A stretch of 64,000 bases of DNA from an uncultured Candidatus Saccharibacteria bacterium (lineage in GTDB: Bacteria; Patescibacteriota; Minisyncoccia; Minisyncoccales; GWA2-46-15), in assembly GCA_964437545.1 (NCBI GenBank), contig CAYTHH010000001.1, positions 14,381 through 78,380 of the forward strand, read 5' to 3'. Position numbers and translations under genes: made by a program. Below are positions 3,356 through 35,667 of the stretch, in pieces. The notes under the pieces were generated by a model. It had not been told where the DNA came from. It made no database searches and was given only the letters and a program-made list of their open reading frames with translations. Numbering within the stretch: the stretch's first letter is position 1; each line of letters starts with the position of its first letter.

Positions 3356-4033
3356 CTAGAGGATTTTTTTAGTTTTCATTGCTAAAACATTATCAAATTC
3401 ATATTCTATTAAGCCGGCATAAGGAATTTCTAGATCAACAATATTATTATTAGAGATCTTTTCAAGATATTTTACAATTGATCTTAAAGAATTATGGCTG
3501 GCTACGATTAAAACATTTTCACCTTGGCTTAAATCTTTTTCAACGTATTTGCGGTAAAAAGGAATAACTCTTTTATAGACGCCAGCCAGGCTTTCACCGC
3601 CTGGCGGAGCAATATTATAACTTCTTCGCCAAAGTTGGACCTTTTCTTTCCCGTATTTTTTCATCATTTTGACCTTGTTTTCTCCCTGAAGTTTTCCGTA
3701 ATATCTCTCGTTTAGATTTTCAGTGACAAAAACAGGAATGTCATCGGTTGAAATGTCAGTGAAATTCCCCCACTCTCTCATTTTTCCCTTGTCCAAATGA
3801 ACAAAAATAGGATATTTTTTATTATTGCTCTCAAGAATTCTAGCAACTGTATCTTTATTTCTAAATAAAGGCGAAGAGTAGATTTTATTAATTTTAAATA
3901 AAGGAATTCTTTTGGCCAGTTCTTTGGCTTTTTGGACTTCTTTTCTGTCTAAAGGAACATCTATCCATCCCGTAAACCTGTTTTCTTTGTTCCATTGAGA
4001 TTTAATATGCCTTAATAAAAATAATTTTGCCAT
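3356..4033 (-). CDS. gpmA: histidine phosphatase superfamily protein, 2,3-bisphosphoglycerate-dependent phosphoglycerate mutase-like
   Basis: N-terminal LFLLRHIKSQWN matches the dPGM catalytic His motif (LxRHGxSxWN), 225 aa. Confidence 0.6.
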   Translation of the reverse strand: MAKLFLLRHIKSQWNKENRFTGWIDVPLDRKEVQKAKELAKRIPLFKINKIYSSPLFRNKDTVARILESNNKKYPIFVHLDKGKMREWGNFTDISTDDIPVFVTENLNERYYGKLQGENKVKMMKKYGKEKVQLWRRSYNIAPPGGESLAGVYKRVIPFYRKYVEKDLSQGENVLIVASHNSLRSIVKYLEKISNNNIVDLEIPYAGLIEYEFDNVLAMKTKKIL

Positions 4034-4138
4034 TTGATTTTATACTTTATATTTTATTGTACCGCATTGAGGGAAAAGAACAAGAAAGGCCATCGACAAA
4101 ACAAAAAGGAGCTAAGATCCTTAAGGTTATAGAAATCA

Positions 4139-5295: not shown

Positions 5296-5318
5296 CTAAA
5301 GGAGCTTAGCTCCTTTAG
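5296..5318. repeat. palindromic hairpin CTAAAGGAGCTTAGCTCCTTTAG (member of a dispersed family)
   Basis: Perfect inverted repeat with a TTA loop. The same core AAAGGAGCTTAGCTCCTTT recurs at 35390-35409 and 35558-35576, and in a related form at 51438-51458. Confidence 0.6.
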
Positions 5319-5335
5319 ATTTGAAAATTACTATC

Positions 5336-6760
5336 TTATTTAATTTTCGCTTTTCTTTGCTTTTCTGTCAATAATTCTTCTAAATTATAAACATTCCCAG
5401 CCCCCATTATTATTAGAATTTCATTGCTTTTTAGATTTTTTTTCAGGTATTGCGTTGTTTCTTTGAGTGTCGGGATATACAGTGTTTTTGTATTTTGTAT
5501 CTTGTATTTAGTATTCTGTTTTTTTGAGATGGCCGAAACCAGTTTTTTAGAGCTAACTTTCTTTTTTAATTCAGCGCTTTCCCGGCCTGAAACGCTATAA
5601 ATATCAGTTAAAATAAGCTGGTCAATTTGAGCTTTAGCTAAAACTTTGACAAAATCTTTGAATAAGTAAAAGGTTCTTTGGTATTGGTGAGGCTGGTAAA
5701 CACAAGTGATCTTTTGTTTGGGGTATTTTTGCCTGGCAGCTTTTAAAGTAACTTCAATCTCGGTTGGGTGATGGGCATAGTCATTGATGAGATTAATTGT
5801 TTTCCCATTCGCTCCGCTTATTTTAATCTTTTTCTGCTCAAATCTTCGCCAAGCTCCCTGATATTCAGATAAAGCTTTAAAAGAAACTTTGTCTTTTATC
5901 TTTAGAATTCTAGCTAAAGTTAAAGCCGCTAAGGCATCGGCTAGGATGTGGTTACCGGGCAGTTTTAGGATTTGTTTCAGCTCGATAATGTCTTTTTGCG
6001 CGGTTGGGTAAAATTTAGTCTGGTATTTTGTTTCTGGTATTTTGTATTTATCATTTAATGTTTTCTTTGTGTTAACATCCTTTTTATTTGCGATCAAGGT
6101 GCCATTTTTCGGCAAGTGGTTAATGAATTTTCTAAATGTTTTAATGATATTTGTAAGGTTTTTAAAATAGTCTAAGTGGTCTTTATCAATGCAGGTTAAG
6201 ACAATGATTGTTGGGCAGTAATTTAAAAAAGAACTTTTGTATTCGTCAGCTTCAATAACGAGTATCTTGTATTTAGTATTTTGTATCTTGTATCCGAATT
6301 TTTTACCAAGGCGGAAATTACTATTACCGAATTCTTTTAATTTAGTGCCGATGATCACGGTTGGATCCAGTTTGGCTTTGATTAAGATTAAAGAGATCAT
6401 TGCTGTAGTTGTTCCTTTGCCATGAGTGCCGGCAACGGCAATAGTAAAATGGTCTTTAGTCAGCTGGCCTAAGTTCTCTGGATAGCTTTGACAGGGAATA
6501 TTTTCTTTAAAGGCCATTACAAGCTCAGGGTTATCATTAGTGATGGCTGGGCTATAAACGACTAAATTGGTATCTTTGGGAAGATTTTGTGATTGATGTT
6601 TGCCAATATTAATTTTAGTCCCTAATTTTTCTAAGGATTTAGTGATTTCAGATTCAGTTAAATCTGATCCAGAGACTTGATGGCTTTCTGCCTGTGAAAG
6701 ATAATATCTGGCCAGAGCCGAAACCCCGATCCCGCCAATGCCGATAAAATGTATTTTCAT
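5336..6760 (-). CDS. murC: UDP-N-acetylmuramate--L-alanine ligase
   Basis: MKIHFIGIGGIGVSALARYY N-terminus, Mur-ligase central and C-terminal domains, 474 aa. Contains three in-frame YKIQNTKYKI-type low-complexity inserts. Confidence 0.85.
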   Translation of the reverse strand: MKIHFIGIGGIGVSALARYYLSQAESHQVSGSDLTESEITKSLEKLGTKINIGKHQSQNLPKDTNLVVYSPAITNDNPELVMAFKENIPCQSYPENLGQLTKDHFTIAVAGTHGKGTTTAMISLILIKAKLDPTVIIGTKLKEFGNSNFRLGKKFGYKIQNTKYKILVIEADEYKSSFLNYCPTIIVLTCIDKDHLDYFKNLTNIIKTFRKFINHLPKNGTLIANKKDVNTKKTLNDKYKIPETKYQTKFYPTAQKDIIELKQILKLPGNHILADALAALTLARILKIKDKVSFKALSEYQGAWRRFEQKKIKISGANGKTINLINDYAHHPTEIEVTLKAARQKYPKQKITCVYQPHQYQRTFYLFKDFVKVLAKAQIDQLILTDIYSVSGRESAELKKKVSSKKLVSAISKKQNTKYKIQNTKTLYIPTLKETTQYLKKNLKSNEILIIMGAGNVYNLEELLTEKQRKAKIK

Positions 6761-8337
6761 CTTATGGGAAGTTCAATGAAAAAGGTTGAACCCTTGTTCG
6801 TACCTCTTGATTCAAACCAAACTTTGCCTTGGTGCATTTCAATAAACTTTTTAGCTACACAAAGTCCCAATCCTACCCCTTCGGTCCATAAAAGAGAACC
6901 CTTTTTACCTCGGGAAAAACTCTTGATTTGCTCCAAATCTTCTTCTTCCAAGCCAATTCCCGTATCTTTAACCTTAATAATTATATTTTTTTGGCTTTTT
7001 TCTATGCTAATGACAATACCGCCGTCTTTAGTGTAGTGGATAGCATTATCAACCAAATTCAAGATAGTTTGGCTAATTTTTTCCTTATCAACAATTATTT
7101 CCGGAATTATTTCTTTTGGTTTTTTAAACTTTAAGTAAAGGTTTTTTTCTTTAGCCCTTATCTTCATTGTTGTAACAATATTCACGATAATTTTTTCAAT
7201 CGAGGATTTTTCTAAATCAAGTTTGATTTTATTACTCTCAATCCTAGAGACATTAAGAAGGTGGTTGACCATGGTGATTAGTCTTTCATTTGCCTGGTAA
7301 ATATTTTTTAGAGGGGCTTTGGCCTTATCTTCAATATTGCCGTAAGTATTCTCCAATAAAAGAGATATATAACCTTTAATGGCTGATAAGGGGGTTCTTA
7401 ATTGATGAGAAGCAATGGAAATGAATTCGGACTTTGATTCATCAAGCTTTTTTAATTCTTCATATGCCAACTCAAGTTTTTTCCGATAGTCAATTTCGTT
7501 AATGACACTTCTGATTAAAAAATACCCAAAAAGTAGAAATAATAAAAAGGCAAACAAACTAACTACTCTCAGAGCAGAAAAAGAAAGAATTACTTCGGTG
7601 AGAAGAATAATTCCCATAATTCCGACGAAAAACTCAGATGCCAAAACCTTTATATCGAAAAGATAGTATTTTGAAATTGAATAAGCAGTAATTCCGCTGA
7701 AAATTATTGTTGCCAGCGGTCCGTAATAAGCAGTCTGCTGAACCCCAAAAAGCGGTAAGAGAATATTACTTAAAAAACCAAGAAAAAGAGCAGAAGAGAT
7801 TCCTCCTATAAAATAAATCAATTGGTATTTTTCCAATTTATTCGTAATTCTTTTGAGTTTTTTTGAAATTAAATAAATTCCTCCTCCAGCGAAAACAAGA
7901 TAATGAAGAATATAAAGAGAATAAAATGTTCCATAGATAGTTTCTCTTTCAGCCGGTCCAGTGATAATTTCCGCTTTATCTACTAGGGGCGTAAAAAGAG
8001 TTAATGCAAAAAAGACTATCATCCACAAAGAAATAGCCCAAAGTAACTTTTTAGATACTTTAAATGTTTCACTTGGAAAAATTAGAGAAAATTTTAAAAG
8101 ATAAAAAAGCATTACTAAAACGATTGCAAAATTGAATCTTCCTATCCAAAGAATTATTATCGGAGACTCAATGATATAAAAAAACAATAAAGAGACTTGC
8201 CATCCGATTACCGACAAAATGAGAGCAAAGAAGGTAGAGTTTATTTTTTCTTTAGTGTTTCTGAGTAAAACAAAAAACCCGAGTAAAAAATTGCCAGCAA
8301 TTGAAATTAAATAAAAAGCTAAAGTTAATTCGGACAT
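6757..8337 (-). CDS. sensor histidine kinase (multi-TM sensor, HisKA + HATPase_c)
   Basis: About 7 N-terminal TM helices, H-box ASHQLRTPLSAIKGY, and N/G boxes (LVDNAIHYT, DTGIGL, GVGLGL). Confidence 0.85.
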   Translation of the reverse strand: MSELTLAFYLISIAGNFLLGFFVLLRNTKEKINSTFFALILSVIGWQVSLLFFYIIESPIIILWIGRFNFAIVLVMLFYLLKFSLIFPSETFKVSKKLLWAISLWMIVFFALTLFTPLVDKAEIITGPAERETIYGTFYSLYILHYLVFAGGGIYLISKKLKRITNKLEKYQLIYFIGGISSALFLGFLSNILLPLFGVQQTAYYGPLATIIFSGITAYSISKYYLFDIKVLASEFFVGIMGIILLTEVILSFSALRVVSLFAFLLFLLFGYFLIRSVINEIDYRKKLELAYEELKKLDESKSEFISIASHQLRTPLSAIKGYISLLLENTYGNIEDKAKAPLKNIYQANERLITMVNHLLNVSRIESNKIKLDLEKSSIEKIIVNIVTTMKIRAKEKNLYLKFKKPKEIIPEIIVDKEKISQTILNLVDNAIHYTKDGGIVISIEKSQKNIIIKVKDTGIGLEEEDLEQIKSFSRGKKGSLLWTEGVGLGLCVAKKFIEMHQGKVWFESRGTNKGSTFFIELPIR

Positions 8338-8340
8338 TAA

Positions 8341-9180
8341 TTAAGCCTTAAAATATTTTGCCTTTAAGGAAACCCATTCTTTCAAGTTTAGATTGGGTAG
8401 ATTTTCAGCGTAAGCGTTTTTGGCTAAGTGAAAATATGGCATGGCTACTAAAGCGCAGCCAATATCTCCTGCTTTTATTTCTTCGGCAATTAAATCAATA
8501 AAGATCTCTTTAAATTTTACATTCTGGTTTTTAGAAATTTCTAAAACGCTATGTAAAGAATTTAAACTTATCTTTTGTCTGGCTGAGGTGCTGATACCCT
8601 CTAAACTTAGAATTTGACCGACATCTTCCATTAAAAGACAGGCATATTTACTGCGATCTTCAGGAATACCAATAGCCAGAGTAGTGTAGAGTGCGGTTGG
8701 GCCAGGGGCGAATTGGAATCTGCCGGCGCAAGGTACGTGCGAACCAGGCAACAAGGGAAAATGCTTCTCGTCTCTGGTTCCGAAAAGGGCTAATGATGCT
8801 TTTCTTAGGTTTTCACCGTTTCTAATGGTTATGCCATCAAAATCTTTGCCTAAAGATTTTGGTGAAAGATACTGGGGGAGCTCAATTTCATCAGTTCTGG
8901 CCAAGTCATAACCCCAAATCAAGCCACGGGAGCCGATAAAAGAAGAAACAATTATCATATTAATCTGACCGATAAAAGTTCCGTTGATTTCGGCGCGGTC
9001 ATAAGCGATAATTGAATCCAGCACTTTTGAGCCAACATGACTGAAGGTTTCCCTTGAGATGCCAATACTTAAAACTGGAGCGGTGATGTAACCGTTTTCA
9101 TAGGGATAGCCAATACAGTGATTATCATATGGGCTAAGAGAGGAACTGAGTATTTTATCCTTTAAAAATAGTGGTTCCAT
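8341..9180 (-). CDS. pyruvoyl-dependent histidine decarboxylase family proenzyme (HdcA-like)
   Basis: Motifs ISPY, AYDRAE, FIGQINMIIVSSFIGS (compare Lactobacillus 30a HdcA YIGQINMTTAS-SFTG, Ser-Ser self-cleavage site), GYDL, HFPLLPGSHVPCA (compare HYPAPGSFIVCA), LLMEDVG (compare MFVEDAG). 279 aa matches the roughly 310-aa proenzyme size. Confidence 0.7.
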   Translation of the reverse strand: MEPLFLKDKILSSSLSPYDNHCIGYPYENGYITAPVLSIGISRETFSHVGSKVLDSIIAYDRAEINGTFIGQINMIIVSSFIGSRGLIWGYDLARTDEIELPQYLSPKSLGKDFDGITIRNGENLRKASLALFGTRDEKHFPLLPGSHVPCAGRFQFAPGPTALYTTLAIGIPEDRSKYACLLMEDVGQILSLEGISTSARQKISLNSLHSVLEISKNQNVKFKEIFIDLIAEEIKAGDIGCALVAMPYFHLAKNAYAENLPNLNLKEWVSLKAKYFKA

Positions 9181-9250
9181 ATTCCATTATTTTACAACAC
9201 TTATTATCAAAATGCAAAGACTCCACCTTGTTTGGCGGAGCCCTTATGTT

Positions 9251-10018
9251 TTACTCTTTCCCCCTCTTTTTTTTGTGGCCGAGAATTTTTTCGACGACAA
9301 TGATCAACCTAATACCTCTTCTTGTGTCCAGATTTTGACAGATTTTTAGAAGCGGCCTGAAATCCTTGTTGAAGATAAAAACGATGTCTTTTTCTTCAAC
9401 TTGGGTTCGGAAGATTGGTTCAAAACCCATATATAAGCCAAGCTTGTAAATGGGTGAAGCAGGTGTTGTCCAGAAAAGGCAAGAAATAACTTGTCTCTCG
9501 AGCCATGCCCACTCCAGCCATGGCTGCAACAGCCCCCTTATAGGTTCGATGCCGTTTCGGAACCCGGCGACAATAGCAAACTCGTCTGCGTAAACGAATC
9601 TATTGACGTTTCGTCGCAAGAGCTGATTTGTGAGTTGATTAAAGTCAGTTGGCGACTTTCCTAATGATTTTGAGATTCTATTTTCAAGTTGATATGGATT
9701 CAGAATCTCACCCCAAGCAAAACCGACCACCGGCATTTTCTCGTTTCCTGCCATAGTGACTAGAAAGGAGGTTTTACGCCCTACTTCCATTTCTAGTTTT
9801 TGCTGGACAGTTTCTTGGCTCCAGTCTTCGACCCAGTAAGAAGCTTCTTTAAAGACCTTTTGATAGGCCTTTATCAAAGCTTGAAGGATTGCCCCGACAG
9901 GTGGTTGATGAGCTAGTATAAATCTTTCTGGAACCTTGATTGGCGCCATATTAGGTTTGTAAATTTTCATCAGCCTGGTCGCCAACTCCAAAATCCAACG
10001 AACAATCTTGTACTTCAT
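9251..10018 (-). CDS. hypothetical protein (possibly acyltransferase-fold); candidate accessory partner of the HdcA-like gene
   Basis: 255 aa. No motif confidently recognised. An acyl-CoA N-acyltransferase-like strand-helix pattern is only a guess. Confidence 0.3.
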   Translation of the reverse strand: MKYKIVRWILELATRLMKIYKPNMAPIKVPERFILAHQPPVGAILQALIKAYQKVFKEASYWVEDWSQETVQQKLEMEVGRKTSFLVTMAGNEKMPVVGFAWGEILNPYQLENRISKSLGKSPTDFNQLTNQLLRRNVNRFVYADEFAIVAGFRNGIEPIRGLLQPWLEWAWLERQVISCLFWTTPASPIYKLGLYMGFEPIFRTQVEEKDIVFIFNKDFRPLLKICQNLDTRRGIRLIIVVEKILGHKKKRGKE

Positions 10019-10144
10019 CTTAACCTCCTTTATAAAATAGTTTTGAATTTACTGGTTTTATTATAACACAAATATAAAAAAAGAAAAGATCCGATTTAAT
10101 TTAAACCAGGAAATTTTAAATCTTAAGCAAGAGAAAGACCAATG

Positions 10145-10195
10145 CTGGCCAGAGCCGAAACCCCGATCCCGCCAATGCCGATAAAATGTATTTTC
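10145..10195 (-). pseudogene. murC 5' remnant (MKIHFIGIGGIGVSALA...) created by the duplication
   Basis: Reverse translation gives the exact murC N-terminus, followed by unrelated sequence and an early stop. Confidence 0.7.
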
Positions 10196-10232
10196 ATCTT
10201 ATGGGAAGTTCAATGAAAAAGGTTGAACCCTT
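10145..10232. repeat. 88-bp perfect direct repeat, second copy (first copy 6708-6795)
   Basis: Identical 88-mer ctggccagagccgaaaccccgatcccgccaatgccgataaaatgtattttcatcttatgggaagttcaatgaaaaaggttgaaccctt. It spans the HK 3' end, the intergenic region and the first 17 codons of murC. Confidence 0.9.
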
Positions 10233-11798
10233 ATCAATGCCGTCTGATTCTGCCCAAATTCTACCCGAATGCATTTCAACAAAGTGTTTAGCAATATATA
10301 ACCCAAGACCAGCTCCTTCGGGATGAGATTGAGATCCGATCACTCCCCGAGAAAAACTTCCAAATAGCTTAGCTAAATCTTTTTTACTCATTCCACCTCC
10401 AGTATCTTTTATTGTAATTTGAAATTTGGAATCTATAGTTTTAATATTAACCATTATCCCTCCTTTTTGTGTGTATTTTATGGCATTATCCACTAAGTTT
10501 AAAATAACCTGTCGTATTTTATTTTTATCTAACGTGGTTTTAGGAAGAGACTCAGTTGGTTTTTCAAGTTTTAAATAAAGTTTTTTCTTTTCTGCTGTAA
10601 TCTTTAAATCATTAATCACTCTCATGACTATTTCTTCTATTAAACATTCCTCTAGCTCAAGCTCTACTTTTCCTGATTCAATCCGAGAAATGCTTAAAAG
10701 ATCATTCACTAATTTAATTAATTTTTCATTGGAATTATATACATTTTCCAATGGCGTTTTAACTTTATCGACTAATTTTCCATAATAACCTTCAAGGATC
10801 ATTGAAATGTATCCCTTGATCGCAGTCAACGGTGTTCTGATTTGGTGAGAAGCGATGGAAATGAATTCCGATTTTGCACTGCTTAATTTTTCAACCTCTT
10901 TATAAGCGATTTGAAGTTTTTCGTTTAATATTGCTAATGTTTTGCGTTGTTCTATTTCGCTAAGAACACTTTTAATGAGTAGATAACCGAAAATGCAAAA
11001 GAGAGCTAAAATAATACCATATGATATTCTCCATAATAAAGTTTGAGCAGTAAGTATTTGAGAGAATAAAATTACTAAAATTATTCCTATTAATGTTTCT
11101 GTCAAAATAATTTTAATTCCAAATAACTGTTTAGCTATTATCGCATAAGCAGTGTAGCCTAAGAAAAAAATAATGGAAAAATTTCCAAATTGATAAAACT
11201 CATAACTGCCCCGGATGGCAGGAAAAACTACGTTAAAAACAATATTCATTATGAAGAATATTGAAAAGCCAAAGAAAAAATATTGTGTCTGAATTTTTTC
11301 TTTTGACGATAGCTTTAGAAATCTTATGAAGAGAATTATTAAAGATAATAACCAGATTATTCCCAGCATGGCAAAAGTCGGGAAAAAATTACCCAAAATA
11401 AGGTTTGTTCCCCAATCTTTCGATTCTATATCTTTAATAACCAAGGGCGTGAAAAGCGAGACAAGGGCGATGGTAACCGAAATAAAAAATATTATTTTTT
11501 CAAGAACAAGATATCTTTTTTGTTCTTTTGGGAATAAAAACGAAAAAAGAAATGTTGTGAAAAAGAATAAGGATAAAATAAAATATACAAGCCTATTCCA
11601 GATTAAAGAATTTGGTAACTGAGATGGAATGTCTGAAATAAATGCAAAAGTAATCCAAAGTAATGCTAAAAAGGTCATTACACAGAAAAGTTGATTTAAT
11701 TGGCTTTTTTTATTCGAAAAATAAACCAACAGGATTAATAAAATCCCTATGAAATCAATTAAAATTATGAGTATTGTTGAGATAAAAAGAATATCCAT
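10194..11798 (-). CDS. sensor histidine kinase, paralog of 6757..8337
   Basis: Same architecture. H-box ASHQIRTPLTAIKGY. C-terminus identical to the first kinase (KGSTFFIELPIR). Confidence 0.85.
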   Translation of the reverse strand: MDILFISTILIILIDFIGILLILLVYFSNKKSQLNQLFCVMTFLALLWITFAFISDIPSQLPNSLIWNRLVYFILSLFFFTTFLFSFLFPKEQKRYLVLEKIIFFISVTIALVSLFTPLVIKDIESKDWGTNLILGNFFPTFAMLGIIWLLSLIILFIRFLKLSSKEKIQTQYFFFGFSIFFIMNIVFNVVFPAIRGSYEFYQFGNFSIIFFLGYTAYAIIAKQLFGIKIILTETLIGIILVILFSQILTAQTLLWRISYGIILALFCIFGYLLIKSVLSEIEQRKTLAILNEKLQIAYKEVEKLSSAKSEFISIASHQIRTPLTAIKGYISMILEGYYGKLVDKVKTPLENVYNSNEKLIKLVNDLLSISRIESGKVELELEECLIEEIVMRVINDLKITAEKKKLYLKLEKPTESLPKTTLDKNKIRQVILNLVDNAIKYTQKGGIMVNIKTIDSKFQITIKDTGGGMSKKDLAKLFGSFSRGVIGSQSHPEGAGLGLYIAKHFVEMHSGRIWAESDGIDKGSTFFIELPIR

Positions 11799-11806
11799 TA
11801 AATATC

Positions 11807-13336
11807 TTATATAATGAATTTCATCTTACCACTTTTTGATAACTTAAACTCATTCTGCCCAAATTTTCGAATTTCAATCCTTGGGATACAAAGTTCAGAA
11901 TTATCTTCATAAGACCGTTTAAAATCATGGTTCCGTGTTAAAAGCGTATTCAAAATTAGGTGCTTATAATCTTCTTTTAACTTAATTTCTTCTTCTTGGG
12001 TTATGTTTTTATCTTTTTTTAACTCTAAGTAGATATAAAATCGCCAATCGCCATTCTCATCAGTTTTTTTAGATAACTTAAAGTTAGTAAAATTTGAGCT
12101 TTTATCAATTATATCTTGGATTGTCATGGGAAAAACATTTGCTCCGTCTAAAGAAATACAGCTTTCTCTCCCTTCTACAAATAAGAATGGCTGCGCATAT
12201 GGTTTAAAATAGGGAGCTTTTTCTTTAAGCTCACCCAGAAGGTCTATGCCCTCTTCCTTAAAAATTTCTAAAACCTTTTTGAATGAGATCATGCCGCCAA
12301 TATCTCGAATATTGTATCTTATTAACGGTATTGATCCTCTGAAAGTAATAATTAAATTCTCATCTTCTTCTTCGACAAAATAAGCAGAAGTATTCAACTG
12401 TGTTAAGCTTACAACATTTCTTTTTTTCCCCAAAATTTTTGCTTGAATGTTTTTATTACTGACAATAAAATCTTGTATTAAAGCTGTCAGGCAATTACCA
12501 TAACTTATTCCTCCTGCATCCGCTGTTCCGTAAACATCAACAATATTATTCAATTCTTTTGGTTCTTTGGCAAATTTATTTATTAGATTTTGTCGAAAAT
12601 CATAGGACATTCCCTCGCCGCCATAGTAAAATTTAATATTATGTTTTTTCCAATCTATCCCATCTTTTTCTCCAGTATCTAAAAATAATTTGAAAAAATA
12701 AGGATATCCGCCAAAAATTATTTGATCATACTTATTAATGAACTTTTTGATAATTGCTAATGTTCCTTCCAAATCAGACCCGGGAGTTGCTATAGTTAAT
12801 AAGCCTTTATTGCGTAATGCAATATCTTTCCAGAACCAAGTATTTAGTTCTCCTGCTATATAGTTGCCCAAAGAGAAACAAACAATGATAAGAGTGGATT
12901 TTTTTTGGGTTTGCCAAATGTTTCTTGCCATCATTTCAAAATAAAGAGAAATCATTTTGTCTTGAAATGAGTTCCTTGGCCAAAATACCGGTTCTCCAGT
13001 TGTGCCAGAAGTAGTTGCTAGCGTAAAGAGATCTGAATATGGTTCAAGAAGCCGTTCATCCAAATCATAATGAAAGATATAATTTTCTTTAGTTGTAACT
13101 GGCACATACTTTTTAAAATCTTCAATCGTTTGTATTTTTTCATGATTTTCAACCCCATTTTTCTTTAAAAAATCCTTATAAGCCGAAACTTTTTCTGCTA
13201 CTTCGTGAAAAGTGTTTAATGCCTTTTTTTCTCCTTGTTTTTCCCACCACTCTGCTGGTCTCGATGCAAAAAACTTATTCGCCCTATCAGGGTTAGATGT
13301 TATAAATTTTCGCATTATATTTCCTATTTTTGACAT
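11807..13336 (-). CDS. adenylate-forming enzyme of the PaaK / coenzyme F390 synthetase / CapK family
   Basis: LATTSGTTGEPVFWPR AMP-binding motif, 509 aa. Confidence 0.6.
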   Translation of the reverse strand: MSKIGNIMRKFITSNPDRANKFFASRPAEWWEKQGEKKALNTFHEVAEKVSAYKDFLKKNGVENHEKIQTIEDFKKYVPVTTKENYIFHYDLDERLLEPYSDLFTLATTSGTTGEPVFWPRNSFQDKMISLYFEMMARNIWQTQKKSTLIIVCFSLGNYIAGELNTWFWKDIALRNKGLLTIATPGSDLEGTLAIIKKFINKYDQIIFGGYPYFFKLFLDTGEKDGIDWKKHNIKFYYGGEGMSYDFRQNLINKFAKEPKELNNIVDVYGTADAGGISYGNCLTALIQDFIVSNKNIQAKILGKKRNVVSLTQLNTSAYFVEEEDENLIITFRGSIPLIRYNIRDIGGMISFKKVLEIFKEEGIDLLGELKEKAPYFKPYAQPFLFVEGRESCISLDGANVFPMTIQDIIDKSSNFTNFKLSKKTDENGDWRFYIYLELKKDKNITQEEEIKLKEDYKHLILNTLLTRNHDFKRSYEDNSELCIPRIEIRKFGQNEFKLSKSGKMKFII

Positions 13337-13530: not shown

Positions 13531-13560
13531 GGTAGCACCTAAGTGCTACCCCTTTCGACT
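13531..13560 (-). terminator. intrinsic terminator overlapping the stop codon of the ThiF-like gene
   Basis: Minus-strand RNA gggguagcac-uuag-gugcuaccc followed by UGUUUUUUU. Confidence 0.55.
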
Positions 13561-14315
13561 GGATCAAACTGCGTGACGAGCTGTGGAGTTTCATTTTTCA
13601 CCATTTTTATAATGGCGGAAACTCCCAGCATTGCTGCTGTGAAGGCGGCAATGATTGGTTGTGGATAGTGCCTTAATTCTCCCGTTTCCATCTGCTTCAA
13701 GATGGGGTAGAGATAAGGAGGGATATTGACACTTTCCATGATGTGATTCAGTGGTTCCATTGCAGGAATCTTTTCGAATTCCTTTAGGGTCATAGTGACT
13801 GGAATTCCCAAAAGGTTTTCAAAGACATTTTCTTTCTTAGGATCAAAAGAGAAAATGGCAGCCCCCCATCCTATATCAATAGGATAAAGGAACCACTTTC
13901 TTTGCTCTCGGCAAACCCTTGCCAGAGCAAGTGAAACTACGATTCCGGGCATTGGATCGATACAATCGATTACCACATTAACTAGAGAAGCGAAATCAAG
14001 GGCATTATTCTGGGTTACAAAATCTGCCCATGTCTCGATTACTGCTTCTGGATTGATGTTCAAAATGTGGTTTGACAAAGCAACAGCTTTGTTTTCACCG
14101 ACATCCTTAACACCATATGCCTGATGGTTGAGGTTTGCTACTTCAACTAAATCAGGATCAGCGAACAGGAATCGTTCAACTCCGACGCGGCATAATACTT
14201 CGGCGATGAAAGATCCCATTCCACAGCCGGCGATTCCGACACGGATTCGCCGTAGGTTTTCCTGCTCTTCTTTCGAGAGAAGCGGGAAATTCCTGGATAC
14301 CAATTCTTCGTACAT
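13539..14315 (-). CDS. ThiF/MoeB/HesA family E1-like adenylyltransferase
   Basis: Rossmann motif VGIAGCGMGSFIAEVL...FLFADPDLVEVANLNHQ, 258 aa. Confidence 0.7.
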   Translation of the reverse strand: MYEELVSRNFPLLSKEEQENLRRIRVGIAGCGMGSFIAEVLCRVGVERFLFADPDLVEVANLNHQAYGVKDVGENKAVALSNHILNINPEAVIETWADFVTQNNALDFASLVNVVIDCIDPMPGIVVSLALARVCREQRKWFLYPIDIGWGAAIFSFDPKKENVFENLLGIPVTMTLKEFEKIPAMEPLNHIMESVNIPPYLYPILKQMETGELRHYPQPIIAAFTAAMLGVSAIIKMVKNETPQLVTQFDPVERGST

Positions 14316-14568
14316 TTTGACTCCTTCCTTTTTAGATTGACAAGATACTATTTTAGTATTTCTATTATAATATTAAATTCTATAAATGTCAAATGGAGAT
14401 ATAAGACTACATGGCTTAATTACAGGGTTTGTTAAAACTAAAAAAAAGAAAACCCAATGTATTCTCATAATATCAAGTTTTTCTTTTCACAAGGGTTAAA
14501 ACCAAAATACTAACAGGTATCGTAATTTATAGACTGTCTATAATAACCTTTAAAATACGAAAAGAGGT

Positions 14569-15141
14569 TTAAGTGAACGAAAGACCGACGCTTGCCAAAA
14601 CAGTATATTCAGGACCTTCTTTCTTTAACTCGCTAGCCATTACCTCAATTGATGAGACTGGGATTTTTAAATCAATATTTTTATCTACTAATGGCACTTC
14701 TTCTATTTCCATTTGCCTGAGCTGCCATTCTTTTATCCTGGCCAAAGTGACATGGGGAGAAAAAGGATGATTTTCTTCATTCATCTCTGCCGGCACTTTT
14801 TCGTACAAAGAGTTTTCCAGATCATTTTTTAAGGATGTTAACTCTTTTGAGGGCAAGCCATTGGCCCAAACCATTCTTGGCGGTATTTTCTTTGGCGGCC
14901 CAAAAGAAATATTATTCAGTTCTAAAGTAAACGGAGAATGTTTTTGGCCGATTTCTTCAACTGCCCGACAAGTGGTTAAAACCTCTTCATCATTCAAATT
15001 TCCCAAGAAAAAAAGCGTCAGATGAAGATTGTCCCTTCTAGTCCATTTGCAAGGCAGATCCAAGTATTCATCTTTTGTCCGGTATAGCTTTTCTCTGATG
15101 TTTTTAGGAAAGTTTATGGCAATAAAAATTCTATTTCTCAC
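14569..15141 (-). CDS. thpR: RNA 2',3'-cyclic phosphodiesterase (2H phosphoesterase, LigT/ThpR family)
   Basis: Two H-x-T-x motifs (HLTLFFLG and HVTLARI), 190 aa. Confidence 0.75.
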   Translation of the reverse strand: MRNRIFIAINFPKNIREKLYRTKDEYLDLPCKWTRRDNLHLTLFFLGNLNDEEVLTTCRAVEEIGQKHSPFTLELNNISFGPPKKIPPRMVWANGLPSKELTSLKNDLENSLYEKVPAEMNEENHPFSPHVTLARIKEWQLRQMEIEEVPLVDKNIDLKIPVSSIEVMASELKKEGPEYTVLASVGLSFT

Positions 15142-15571: not shown

Positions 15572-15722
15572 GCTTCGCGGAAACGTAAAATGAAGATTCT
15601 TTCAGAATCTACAGACATATTTACGAGCAATGTATAAGCAAAGCTTAGCCTTTCCGCTTCGCGGAAACGTAAAATGAAGATTCTTTCAGAATCTACAGAT
15701 ATATTTCATAATTAATGTATAA
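15572..15722 (+). repeat. tandem repeat of about 85 bp (1.8 copies); a third partial copy lies at 16167-16206
   Basis: The unit gcaaagcttagcctttccgcttcgcggaaacgtaaaatgaagattctttcagaatctacagayatattt...aatgtataa contains two small hairpins (ttccgc-ttc-gcggaa and gattc-tttca-gaatc). Confidence 0.8.
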
Positions 15723-16166: not shown

Positions 16167-16201
16167 GCAAAGCTTAGCCTTTCCCTTCGCGGAAACGTAA
16201 A

Positions 16202-17125
16202 ATGAAAATAGTTTTTTTCGGTACTCCAAAATTTTCAACTATAATTCTTGAAGCATTAATTGTTAGCGGTTATGCTCCGGTTTTAGTAGTGACGGCCGGT
16301 AACAAGCCAGTGGGCAGAAATAAAGTCATTACTCCCCCACCCGTAAAGGTTTTGGCCCTAGAGCATCAGATAAGAATATTGCAACCCCAAGATCTTGAAA
16401 GCATTGAACCAGATCTTAAAGCTCTTAATCCCGATCTGGTTATTGTCGCTGCCTACGGCCCGCCTTTTCTAACTCAGAATATCCTTCAATACAATTGTTT
16501 AAATGTTCATCCCTCTTTGCTGCCAAAATACCGAGGAGCATCGCCAATTCCAGGCGCTATTCTTAGCGGTGAAGGACAGACAGGAGTAACGATTATTAAA
16601 ATGACGGACAAAATAGATCATGGCGATATTGTTGCTCAAGAAAAACTGGCTATTGAATCTCAAGATACTGCCATATCTCTAACAGAAAAACTAGCTCAGC
16701 TTGCAGCCCAACTTTTAGTTAAAACTATTCCCTTATGGATTAAGGAAGAAATTGTGTCCCGATCCCAGGGTCAATCGCCAACGCCCTACTGCCCTCAATT
16801 GAAAAAACAAGATGGCCGAATAAATTGGCAAAACAACTCAGAATATATTGAAAGGCAAATTCGCGCTTATCATCCTTGGCCAGGCACTTTTACTCTTTTT
16901 AAGGGTCAGATCTTGAAAATTTTAAAGGGTTATGTTACAGAAAAAGAAGAAACCAAACTGAATCCAGGTTTTGTTTTTTTAACCAAGGCCGAGAAAAAGC
17001 TGGCTGTTCAAACTAAAAAGGGCGTTTTAGTGATTGAGATGCTACAGCTTGAAGGCGGTAAACCGCTTTCAGCTGAAGATTTTTTTAGAGGTCATCGGGA
17101 AATCATCGGCGCAATTCTTCAATAA
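16202..17125 (+). CDS. fmt: methionyl-tRNA formyltransferase
   Basis: MKIVFFGTPKFS N-terminus, formyltransferase core, C-terminal domain, 307 aa. Confidence 0.9.
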   Translation: MKIVFFGTPKFSTIILEALIVSGYAPVLVVTAGNKPVGRNKVITPPPVKVLALEHQIRILQPQDLESIEPDLKALNPDLVIVAAYGPPFLTQNILQYNCLNVHPSLLPKYRGASPIPGAILSGEGQTGVTIIKMTDKIDHGDIVAQEKLAIESQDTAISLTEKLAQLAAQLLVKTIPLWIKEEIVSRSQGQSPTPYCPQLKKQDGRINWQNNSEYIERQIRAYHPWPGTFTLFKGQILKILKGYVTEKEETKLNPGFVFLTKAEKKLAVQTKKGVLVIEMLQLEGGKPLSAEDFFRGHREIIGAILQ

Positions 17126-17163
17126 TTTTTATACTAAATACAAGATACTATATACTATAATTT

Positions 17164-35352: not shown

Positions 35353-35476
35353 AGAATACAAAACCCTGTCATGATTCAATTAAAAATCGAAAAGGAGCTA
35401 AGCTCCTTTACATAAATTAAGAAGAAAGTTGGATATCGCATGTCTAATTGAATTGGGGCTAAGCATATTTTTTCAA

Positions 35477-35550: not shown

Positions 35551-35667
35551 TCAAAAAAAGGAGCTTAGCTCCTTTTCGGTATTTGATCTTGTTATTAAAC
35601 TCTTAATATCTCTTAAAGTTAAGGGATTGCTCCCCCCTTTGGTTTTTGTTAGAGTAAAGGAAATAAC

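Follow-up and report, generated by a model that had tools for sequence, protein, structure and literature searches.

A perfect 88-nucleotide repeat between ligT and murC as the probable scar of illegitimate recombination between two kinase-terminated operons in a patescibacterial genome

The DNA analyzed here, referred to below as the window, is a 64,000-nucleotide (nt) stretch of contig CAYTHH010000001.1 (GenBank assembly GCA_964437545.1, positions 14,381 to 78,380 of the forward strand) from an uncultured Candidatus Saccharibacteria bacterium that GTDB places in the Patescibacteriota. Between the genes ligT and murC it carries two operons, each with a sensor kinase gene at its end, and the last codons of both kinases lie in one and the same 88-nt sequence. 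This perfect direct repeat is probably the scar of an illegitimate recombination that stacked the two kinase-terminated operons head to tail between ligT and murC. All genes of the locus lie on the minus strand. In gene direction their order is ligT, a ThiF-family adenylyltransferase, a 509-amino-acid (aa) ligase and the kinase HK-B (module 1), repeat copy 2 with a stub of murC, a 255-aa protein, a histidine-decarboxylase-like (HDC) protein and the kinase HK-A (module 2), and repeat copy 1 with the intact murC (Table 1). Homologous loci are cited by L numbers.

The segments at 6708-6795 and 10145-10232 of the window are identical at 88 of 88 nt, and the bases that adjoin them at either end already differ. 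The copies are spaced 3437 nt apart, with a segment of 3.35 kb between them; further copies or longer repeats are absent from the window, and sub-25-mers of the 88-mer occur nowhere else in it on either strand. In the direction of the genes, the repeat opens with 39 nt of kinase sequence (the last 12 codons and the TGA) and goes on with a 53-nt murC portion (codons 1 to 17 plus 2 nt), with 4 nt common to both portions, as the kinase TGA overlaps the murC ATG as ATGA and no spacer separates the two genes. A preliminary description of this DNA had reported an exact repeat at these two positions, which we confirm, and its count of 17 murC codons holds once the 2 additional nt and the minus-strand orientation of the genes are taken into account; what it described as the last 26 nt of the kinase and an intergenic region is in fact the 39 nt of kinase and the overlap. 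On the kinase side, nucleotide identity between the copies drops at once to ~57 to 61% outside the repeat, on the murC side there is zero similarity beyond the repeat end, and the HK-A and HK-B proteins are 42% identical. Given this sharp fall-off of identity at the flanks, the 88/88 match is not attributable to chance or to purifying selection, and the identical tract is far younger than the divergence of HK-A and HK-B. The preliminary description was correct in that respect, as it had judged the identical flank to be recent from the only moderate similarity of the kinases elsewhere.

In copy 2 the murC portion opens a reading frame of 24 aa (ATG at 10197, stop at 10125-10123) whose start overlaps the HK-B stop, again as ATGA. 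It reads MKIHFIGIGGIGVSALA-SIGLSLA and then terminates, so that murC residues 1 to 17 are joined in frame to the tail of a LigT protein; the LigT proteins of L100 and of the window itself end in VLASIGLSFT and VLASVGLSFT, respectively. The 35 nt past copy 2 (10144-10110), CATTGGTCTTTCTCTTGCTTAA GATTTAAAATTTC, correspond to the last ligT codons and downstream sequence of L100, TATTGGCCTTTCTTTTACTTAA AATCTTATAATTTC, with 29/35 identities and a single gap, and the match falls exactly on the LigT stop. For this remnant the local alignment score is 38, compared with 18.6 +/- 2.6 for shuffled sequences (z ~7.5), and none of 300 shuffles reached 38. The dead murC N-terminal stub with an early stop that had been described earlier is therefore real, whereas the ligT 3' remnant that follows it had been missed. 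Because the stub continues into this remnant, the locus is a head-to-tail join of LigT-to-murC units and not a simple insertion: unit 1 comprises the ligT end, a spacer, ThiF, the ligase, HK-B and copy 2, and unit 2 comprises the ligT remnant, a spacer, the 255-aa gene, HDC, HK-A and copy 1, from which it runs on into murC. A junction of a murC start to a ligT end is the signature of a head-to-tail duplication or an unequal crossover of the LigT-murC interval, and a circularized unit extending from the ligT 3' end to the murC 5' start also yields such a junction once it has integrated.

At this junction, here called J (10145/10144), murC codon 17/18 meets ligT codon -8/-7. The microhomology between murC (CTGGCCAG) and ligT (TTGGCAAG) amounts to 2 exact nt, or 6/7 if imperfect matches are counted. 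When the breakpoints are aligned, murC GCTCTGGCCAG/A stands against the putative parental ligT TTTTGGCAAG/C without extended homology. The window's own ligT is 80 to 95% identical to that of L100 at the nucleotide level until approximately its last 8 codons (about -8), where identity falls, near the same codon as J. The stub is probably translated by way of its ATGA overlap with HK-B, and it is too short for a Mur ligase.

The organism is a member of the Parcubacteria/Patescibacteria. A search for murC among species representatives gave a best match of 68%, and a kinase lay directly upstream of murC in 0 of 80 related murC loci, the usual adjacency being ligT-murC (L016, L096/L107, L115, and L116). 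The sole relatives found with a kinase-murC junction are L100 and L101, which come from two NCBI Parcubacteria assemblies. In these the order is efp, fmt, two small open reading frames (ORFs), ligT, a spacer, the 255-aa homolog, HDC, HK-A, and murC, with the same ATGA overlap between HK-A and murC and without ThiF-ligase-HK-B. Their backbone is syntenic with that of the window at ~80 to 82% nucleotide identity, and the stretch from the 255-aa gene through HDC and HK-A to murC is 78 to 82% identical. They also hold the closest HK-A ortholog (83%), in the same position beside murC. In more distant relatives the 255-aa gene, HDC, and HK-A are followed by a histidine phosphatase (HisPhos) gene (L102 and L105), a response regulator (L117), or hicBA (L118). 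ThiF-ligase-HK-B is a conserved three-gene module as well, found across Parcubacteria in at least 10 further loci (L024, L096, L099, and L107 to L114). The closest HK-B ortholog (79%) belongs to L096, where the order is LigT-murC-...-ThiF-ligase-HK-B-HisPhos, the HK-B stop lies 8 nt ahead of the HisPhos start, and the ligase is 88% identical to that of the window; in L099 (HK-B ortholog, 65%) a response regulator comes next. No murC followed HK-B within the locus in any of the six loci with sequence beyond the 3' end of the kinase gene (L024, L096, L099, L108, L110, and L114), and a metagenome scan with the 509-aa ligase returned eight loci, none of them with a LigT-ThiF or HK-B-murC adjacency. 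The slot before HisPhos-331-glutaredoxin is occupied by module 1 in L096 and by module 2 in L102 and L105, and the slot between ligT and murC holds module 2 in L100 and, in the window, both. Breakpoints recur at the kinase 3' end, after which comes HisPhos, murC, a response regulator, or hicBA. Upstream of HisPhos, no kinase remnant was found that would be a scar of the HK-HisPhos adjacency of L096, L102, and L105.

These relatives also indicate which copy of the repeat is the native one. The kinase part of the repeat matches the HK-A end of L100 at 32 of 39 nt, including ...CTTCCCATAA(G/A)ATGA. The HK-B of L096 ends in ...CTACCAATTTAA, and the HK-B orthologs encode the same conserved peptide with other codons and in another stop context. 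Compared with its L096 ortholog, the window's HK-B is 80 to 90% identical at the nucleotide level along the gene and 63 to 69% identical only in the last ~40 codons, that is, in the last windows of the comparison. The upstream edge of copy 2 (10232/10233) falls in the conserved C-terminal kinase motif KGSTFFIELP. The HK-A-type kinase part, together with the drop in HK-B identity only at its end, shows that copy 1 is the native junction of HK-A stop and murC start, which predates the split from the L100 lineage, and that copy 2 is a secondary copy of this junction attached to the body of HK-B. The 12 residues supplied to HK-B by the repeat (KGSTFFIELPIR) agree with the family consensus, which leaves HK-B intact. 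The 3' end of the L105 kinase is HK-B-like (80% versus 67% over 84 nt), which is too weak to call it a mosaic. The view that the repeat is a footprint of recombination or duplication is therefore retained from the preliminary description, and the polarity and extent that it gave to the event are not. It had proposed that an ancestral kinase-murC junction received the HdcA-like gene, the 255-aa ORF, and a kinase copy, a junction for which the 80 murC loci offer no precedent. The supposed newcomer is, moreover, already present next to murC in L100 and L101 without HK-B, and this arrangement makes it the older resident. The comparison with relatives that had been suggested as a check did not recover an HK-B-murC junction lacking the 3.4-kb segment; HK-B is followed there by HisPhos or a response regulator.

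A number of observations weigh against the reading of the repeat as a stacking scar. Of 24 positions, 6 differ between the remnant and the end of the true ligT, as against 0 of 88 between the two repeat copies (Fisher p = 5.6e-5), so one recent duplication cannot account for both; either two parental lineages or an older duplication with recent homogenization of the 88 nt is needed. The units are not collinear, as only the 88 nt, the 24-nt ligT end (18/24), and the kinases correspond between them. The spacers of the two units (ig1 and ig2) gave no alignment with each other, and the ThiF-ligase and GNAT-HDC gene pairs (the 255-aa protein being the GNAT member, as described below) are unrelated. 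The 255-aa gene with its leader (9251-10109) is ~65% identical to L100 at the nucleotide level, compared with ~85% for HDC and HK-A; the identity switches near 9290, and a hairpin is located at 9215-9246. This anomalous divergence indicates a separate recombination patch in the same place. The predicted intermediates, LigT-ThiF-ligase-HK-B-murC or a pure tandem of HK-A units, were found in no genome. Finally, since the nearest relatives are ~80% identical at the nucleotide level, more than one order of events may be considered, and gain of the HK-B unit in the window, as opposed to its loss in L100, is the parsimonious reading.

Other features of the slot point to a layered history. The leader of ThiF holds a 20-nt motif, AAATAGTATCTTGTCAATCT, which elsewhere occurs only before the 255-aa homolog of L100 and L101 and not before ThiF, and the leader of the window's 255-aa gene is identical at 28 of 30 positions (10045-10074) to that of the more distant L102. 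An ORF for a small single-pass membrane peptide (...YFFWMIYQLK...) precedes the 255-aa homolog in L100 (8040-8160) and L102 (140-280) and is missing from the corresponding window spacer (ig2). In L117 a 49-aa ORF, a candidate counterpart, occupies the position of this small membrane ORF. Around unit 1 there are at least three novel junctions: leader to ThiF, HK-B body to repeat, and repeat to ligT remnant. Every scenario involves at least two events or an unobserved intermediate.

We propose that ThiF-ligase-HK-B was carried on a DNA end that paired with the 3' end of the resident HK-A, a homeologous sequence, that this end was then extended by 88 nt across the HK-A stop and the murC start, and that microhomology allowed a backward switch of template to the 3' end of ligT. 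Equivalently, two chromosomes, one holding the HK-B module in the slot and the other the HK-A module, could have undergone an unequal or illegitimate crossover. With two lineages as the sources of the units and the 88 nt copied from the resident junction, such a template switch covers all features in one event, and we favor it only slightly. As a result, HK-B would retain an intact consensus C terminus, and the 24-aa murC-LigT fusion peptide, translationally coupled to HK-B, would be a by-product. The operon of the 255-aa gene, HDC, HK-A, and murC would retain its own promoter, with the extended -10 element TGTGTTATAAT, and the repeats would render the 3.35-kb segment deletable by homologous recombination. 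No variant with this deletion was present among the available contigs.

It is possible, if unlikely, that the stacking is old, that the stub had already diverged, and that the HK-A/murC junction was recently transferred, by gene conversion, to the homologous remnant behind the HK-B body. This would give the same architecture as the template switch and would differ only in the cause of the tract identity. The ligT ends that have diverged next to an unchanged repeat and the spacers that no longer align are what it predicts, the HK-A type of the tract supplies a clear donor polarity, and the tract exactly fills the sole stretch of retained homology, from the HK-B body to J. However, gene conversion normally needs homology past both tract ends, and nothing homologous lies beyond J while identity on the other side is ~57%; the 88 nt before conversion would have been perhaps 75 to 85% identical, which makes a poor recombination substrate, and no residual mismatches are left at the tract edges. 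The model of the preliminary description, in which HK-B and murC were the residents and 255-HDC-HK-A was inserted through the 88-nt homology, for example by integration of a circle, with duplication of the repeat, appears very improbable to us. It does explain why the 3.35-kb segment is bracketed by identical direct repeats; a circle running from the ligT 3' end through 255-HDC-HK-A to the repeat and closed at J would integrate in exactly this form; and the remnant and the 255-aa leader are unlike the window's own ligT end and spacer, as if the left part of unit 2 had come from another lineage. Yet HK-B stands beside murC in no relative, the relatives that share the backbone have HK-A there and no HK-B, a resident HK-B-murC junction would itself need an HK-A-murC origin as the repeat is of HK-A type, and the ThiF leader is the one that precedes the 255-aa homolog in L100. 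A variant with a short-lived LigT-ThiF-ligase-HK-B-murC intermediate, in which HK-B already carried the altered end and into which the HK-A unit was re-inserted, may also be considered.

We give next to no credence to a mobile element or a programmed switch, in which the repeats would serve as attachment sites or regulated excision would toggle the 255-HDC-HK-A operon. Direct repeats do bracket a self-contained operon with its own promoter, and an 88-nt perfect repeat suffices for RecA-dependent pop-out. However, no integrase, transposase, or invertase match was obtained in the main ORFs from ~2.2 to 14.3 kb, the repeats are host coding sequence without an element-specific att core, the excised or empty state was seen in no contig of the population, and no significant structure was obtained when the junction was folded as RNA (z = -1.4). 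An assembly artifact, which the preliminary description had named as a possible refutation, would mean that two strain variants, or a chromosome and a 3.4-kb circle, were merged through a collapsed repeat. Such an assembly graph, in which the 3.4-kb segment is flanked by two repeats, is formally equal to the chromosome with one repeat plus a circle when k is <88, and the population includes three contigs that are interrupted at copy 2 or no more than ~120 nt away from it (L006 stops inside the copy at 10167, L013 begins at 10095, and L008 stops at 10026). Nevertheless, the two copies occur at their 3437-nt spacing in 10 fetched loci from at least nine separate contigs of JGI and ENA metagenome assemblies, which were located by exact-protein look-ups, come from two pipelines, and are 99.97 to 100% identical to the window; both junctions are spanned in these loci. 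The ENA contigs have names with the prefix k141_, which we take to denote MEGAHIT with a final k of 141, and a k-mer of this length exceeds the 88 nt and spans the repeat. Junction J, from murC codon 17 to the ligT remnant, would be present in neither hypothetical strain, and L008 covers HK-B, copy 2, and J as far as the start of the 255-aa gene. An artifact is accordingly extremely improbable. No version without either copy occurred among the clonal contigs of the population; since the contigs are essentially clonal, they provide no haplotype without either unit.

Tandem duplications with short or no junction homology have been classified for bacterial genomes as RecA-independent illegitimate joins, microhomology-mediated end joining, or replication template switching (bioRxiv 10.64898/2026.05.22.727201). 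As in these, the window has a new inner junction at which an interval's downstream end meets its upstream start, the microhomology is restricted to the few nucleotides given above, the outer boundaries lack an extended repeat, the junction lies inside coding sequence and produces a fusion stub, and the single-unit state is present in relatives (LigT-255-HDC-HK-A-murC in L100 and L101). Unlike them, the two units differ in their gene pairs, which are unrelated, and recognizable duplication is limited to 88 nt (100%) and 24 nt (75%). Since neither unit is a copy of the other, one or more further events are required, which may be a module swap, a contribution of two parental lineages, or gene conversion. 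In homology-facilitated illegitimate recombination (HFIR) during natural transformation, joins are made at microhomologies of 3 to 10 bp beside a homologous anchor (PMC6382021, citing work published in 2002 by de Vries and Wackernagel and by Prudhomme and in 2003 by Meier and Wackernagel). The window may likewise have a single anchor of homologous or homeologous sequence, in the body of ligT or at the 3' end of the kinase, next to an illegitimate join at a few bases of microhomology, and it contains a foreign-looking block, ThiF-ligase-HK-B, that is 80% identical to a lineage of different backbone. Classical HFIR, however, replaces or deletes resident DNA, whereas the window duplicates a piece of the resident junction; the donor arrangement was not found, and natural transformation is a hypothetical route for this organism. 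The short perfect tract within strongly diverged kinases, with HK-A as donor and HK-B as recipient, resembles gene conversion between direct paralogs, but it goes 53 nt past the kinase into murC and stops at the nonhomologous J, and gene conversion alone cannot have made the stub. As in Campbell-type integration, an insert lies between direct repeats that are identical and correspond to the shared homology, and a circle from the ligT 3' end to murC codon 17, closed at J, gives exactly the product seen. In contrast to such integration, the locus has no plasmid or phage functions, recombinase, or evidence of a circle, and the empty site, HK-B-murC, is present in no relative. Taken as a complete explanation, each known class departs from the locus in one or more of its defining features. 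Events of this class are well known, and the locus is a new, well-resolved instance of an ordinary scar in a genome of the candidate phyla radiation.

Table 1. Coordinates of the ligT-murC locus in the window, listed in gene direction
Feature	Position	Strand	Basis or remark
ligT, intact (2'-5' RNA ligase / LigT-like phosphoesterase)	14569..15141	-	ORF; PF02834 on the identical L001 gene; upstream boundary of the slot
ligT-ThiF spacer (ig1)	14316..14568	-	leader motif AAATAGTATCTTGTCAATCT at 14334-14353
ThiF-family adenylyltransferase, module 1	13539..14315	-	PF00899, E 2e-29
509-aa PaaK/ANL-like acyl-adenylate ligase, module 1	11807..13336	-	weak AMP-binding, GH3, and PaaK matches, all below family cut-offs
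HK-B, HisKA_7TM sensor kinase, module 1	10194..11798	-	chimeric: HK-B body plus last 12 codons from HK-A
Repeat copy 2	10145..10232	-	codes for the end of HK-B (12 codons and stop) and for codons 1 to 17 of the stub
24-aa stub ORF, MKIHFIGIGGIGVSALASIGLSLA followed by a stop	10123..10197	-	in-frame fusion of murC codons 1-17 with the final 7 ligT codons
ligT 3' remnant	10110..10144	-	22 nt (10144-10123, TAA included) plus 13 nt of ligT downstream sequence
Leader/promoter of the 255-aa gene (ig2)	10019..10109	-	holds TGTGTTATAAT; 30-nt stretch 10045-10074 common to L102
255-aa protein, predicted GNAT fold, first gene of module 2	9251..10018	-	AlphaFold2 model plus Foldseek
279-aa pyruvoyl-type histidine-decarboxylase-like protein (HDC), module 2	8341..9180	-	PF02329, E 2e-40
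HK-A, HisKA_7TM sensor kinase, module 2, resident beside murC	6757..8337	-	Pfam; 83% to L100 ortholog
Repeat copy 1, native HK-A/murC junction	6708..6795	-	runs into full-length murC; kinase part 82% identical in L100/L101
murC, intact, 474 aa	5336..6760	-	three Mur ligase domains

Domains were called by Pfam and NCBIfam scans of the main ORFs from ~2.2 to 14.3 kb, and Rfam was run over the whole window. In Pfam, HK-A and HK-B both have the HisKA_7TM-HisKA-HATPase architecture. The HDC-like protein matches TIGR00541 with a score of 118.8, under the cut-off of 346.65. The ORFs scanned gave no match to a recombinase, in addition to the families named above, and for 14.3 to 16 kb precomputed Pfam calls on the L001 genes identical to those of the window show no integrase, transposase, or invertase either. 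Rfam identified only four tRNAs, all distant from the region. In a promoter and terminator scan the counts match the shuffle expectation, and a weak hairpin at 10137-10150 is unconvincing. The GC content of the 255-aa, HDC, and ThiF genes is 0.40 to 0.45, compared with ~0.30 for the kinases, which does not part the supposed insert from the resident. Located 3' of murC are two small membrane proteins and then HisPhos (3356-4033).

The 255-aa protein has no Pfam or NCBIfam match and belongs to a small family, with 102 cluster representatives in 1.8 billion proteins. A single-sequence AlphaFold prediction was unusable (predicted local distance difference test [pLDDT] score of 37), and the AlphaFold2 model based on an alignment of 45 sequences (pLDDT of 96.2) was used instead. 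The top Foldseek matches of this model in the PDB are NatD, Naa60, SpeG, and arylalkylamine N-acetyltransferases (E ~1e-7), and the protein is accordingly predicted to have a GNAT (amine N-acyltransferase) fold. Its homologs always adjoin a pyruvoyl HDC-like gene (window 8341-10018, L100, L102, L105, and L117), and one of them (P0374) is a fusion of the 255-aa family with HDC in the same order as the two genes of the window. Module 2, with a decarboxylase, an amine N-acyltransferase, and a seven-transmembrane (7TM) kinase, looks from these models like a unit that makes and senses an N-acylated amine; module 1 consists of an E1-like adenylyltransferase, an acyl-adenylate ligase, and a 7TM kinase. 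In some lineages a stand-alone receiver follows both modules (L099 for module 1).

A broader hypothesis, which we regard as distinctly doubtful, is that the HisKA_7TM kinase 3' end serves as a recurrent recombination anchor by which cassettes of two enzymes and a kinase are swapped among a few Parcubacteria slots, namely, the positions before HisPhos, between ligT and murC, and before a response regulator. The 88-nt repeat would then be an intermediate that still allows reversible loss of a cassette, and the cassettes would perhaps be units for the synthesis and sensing of small-molecule signals. If this were true, organisms thought to be minimal in signaling would exchange cassettes for signals such as an N-acylated amine. 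Apart from this hypothesis, the locus offers a clean example of gene-order change in streamlined Patescibacteria, with breakpoints placed to the nucleotide and with an in-frame murC-LigT fusion stub and a chimeric yet intact sensor kinase as its products. In this lineage, illegitimate joins at the level of microhomology occur together with homeologous exchange in a conserved kinase motif, and operons ending in a 7TM kinase move among a few backbone positions. No new kind of genetic element is revealed. For annotation, the 24-aa murC pseudo-start and the chimeric kinase C terminus deserve a flag, as both would be overlooked by automatic pipelines.

Several other repeats are located in the neighborhood. 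The leader and start of fmt (ATG at 16202, plus strand), CTTCGCGGAAACGTAAAATGAA, occur at 15572-15622, 15656-15706, and 16184-16234, so that another gene start near the locus is duplicated. The two upstream copies are 84 nt apart and 98% identical, and they lie upstream of a 147-aa ORF; a palindrome, AGATTCTTTCAGAATCT, follows each of them, and a longer common stretch, AAGCAAAGCTTAGCCTTTCC..., lies before copies 2 and 3. A hairpin of palindromic sequence, AAAGGAGCT(A/T)AGCTCCTTT, is found at the intergenic positions 4105-4125, 5296-5316, 35379-35409, and 35557-35587; it brackets the two small membrane-protein genes between murC and HisPhos and may be a terminator or an element like the repetitive extragenic palindromes (REP-like). 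A motif of ~25 nt, GTATTTTGTATCTTGTATTTAGTAT, is present in frame inside murC at 5486-5524, 6026-6064, and 6251-6303, where it encodes KYKIQNTK-like insertions, and once more, inverted, between fmt and efp (17131-17160). The contigs of L100 and L101 both stop within murC at a point corresponding to approximately position 5575 of the window, just upstream of the motif copy at 5486-5524.

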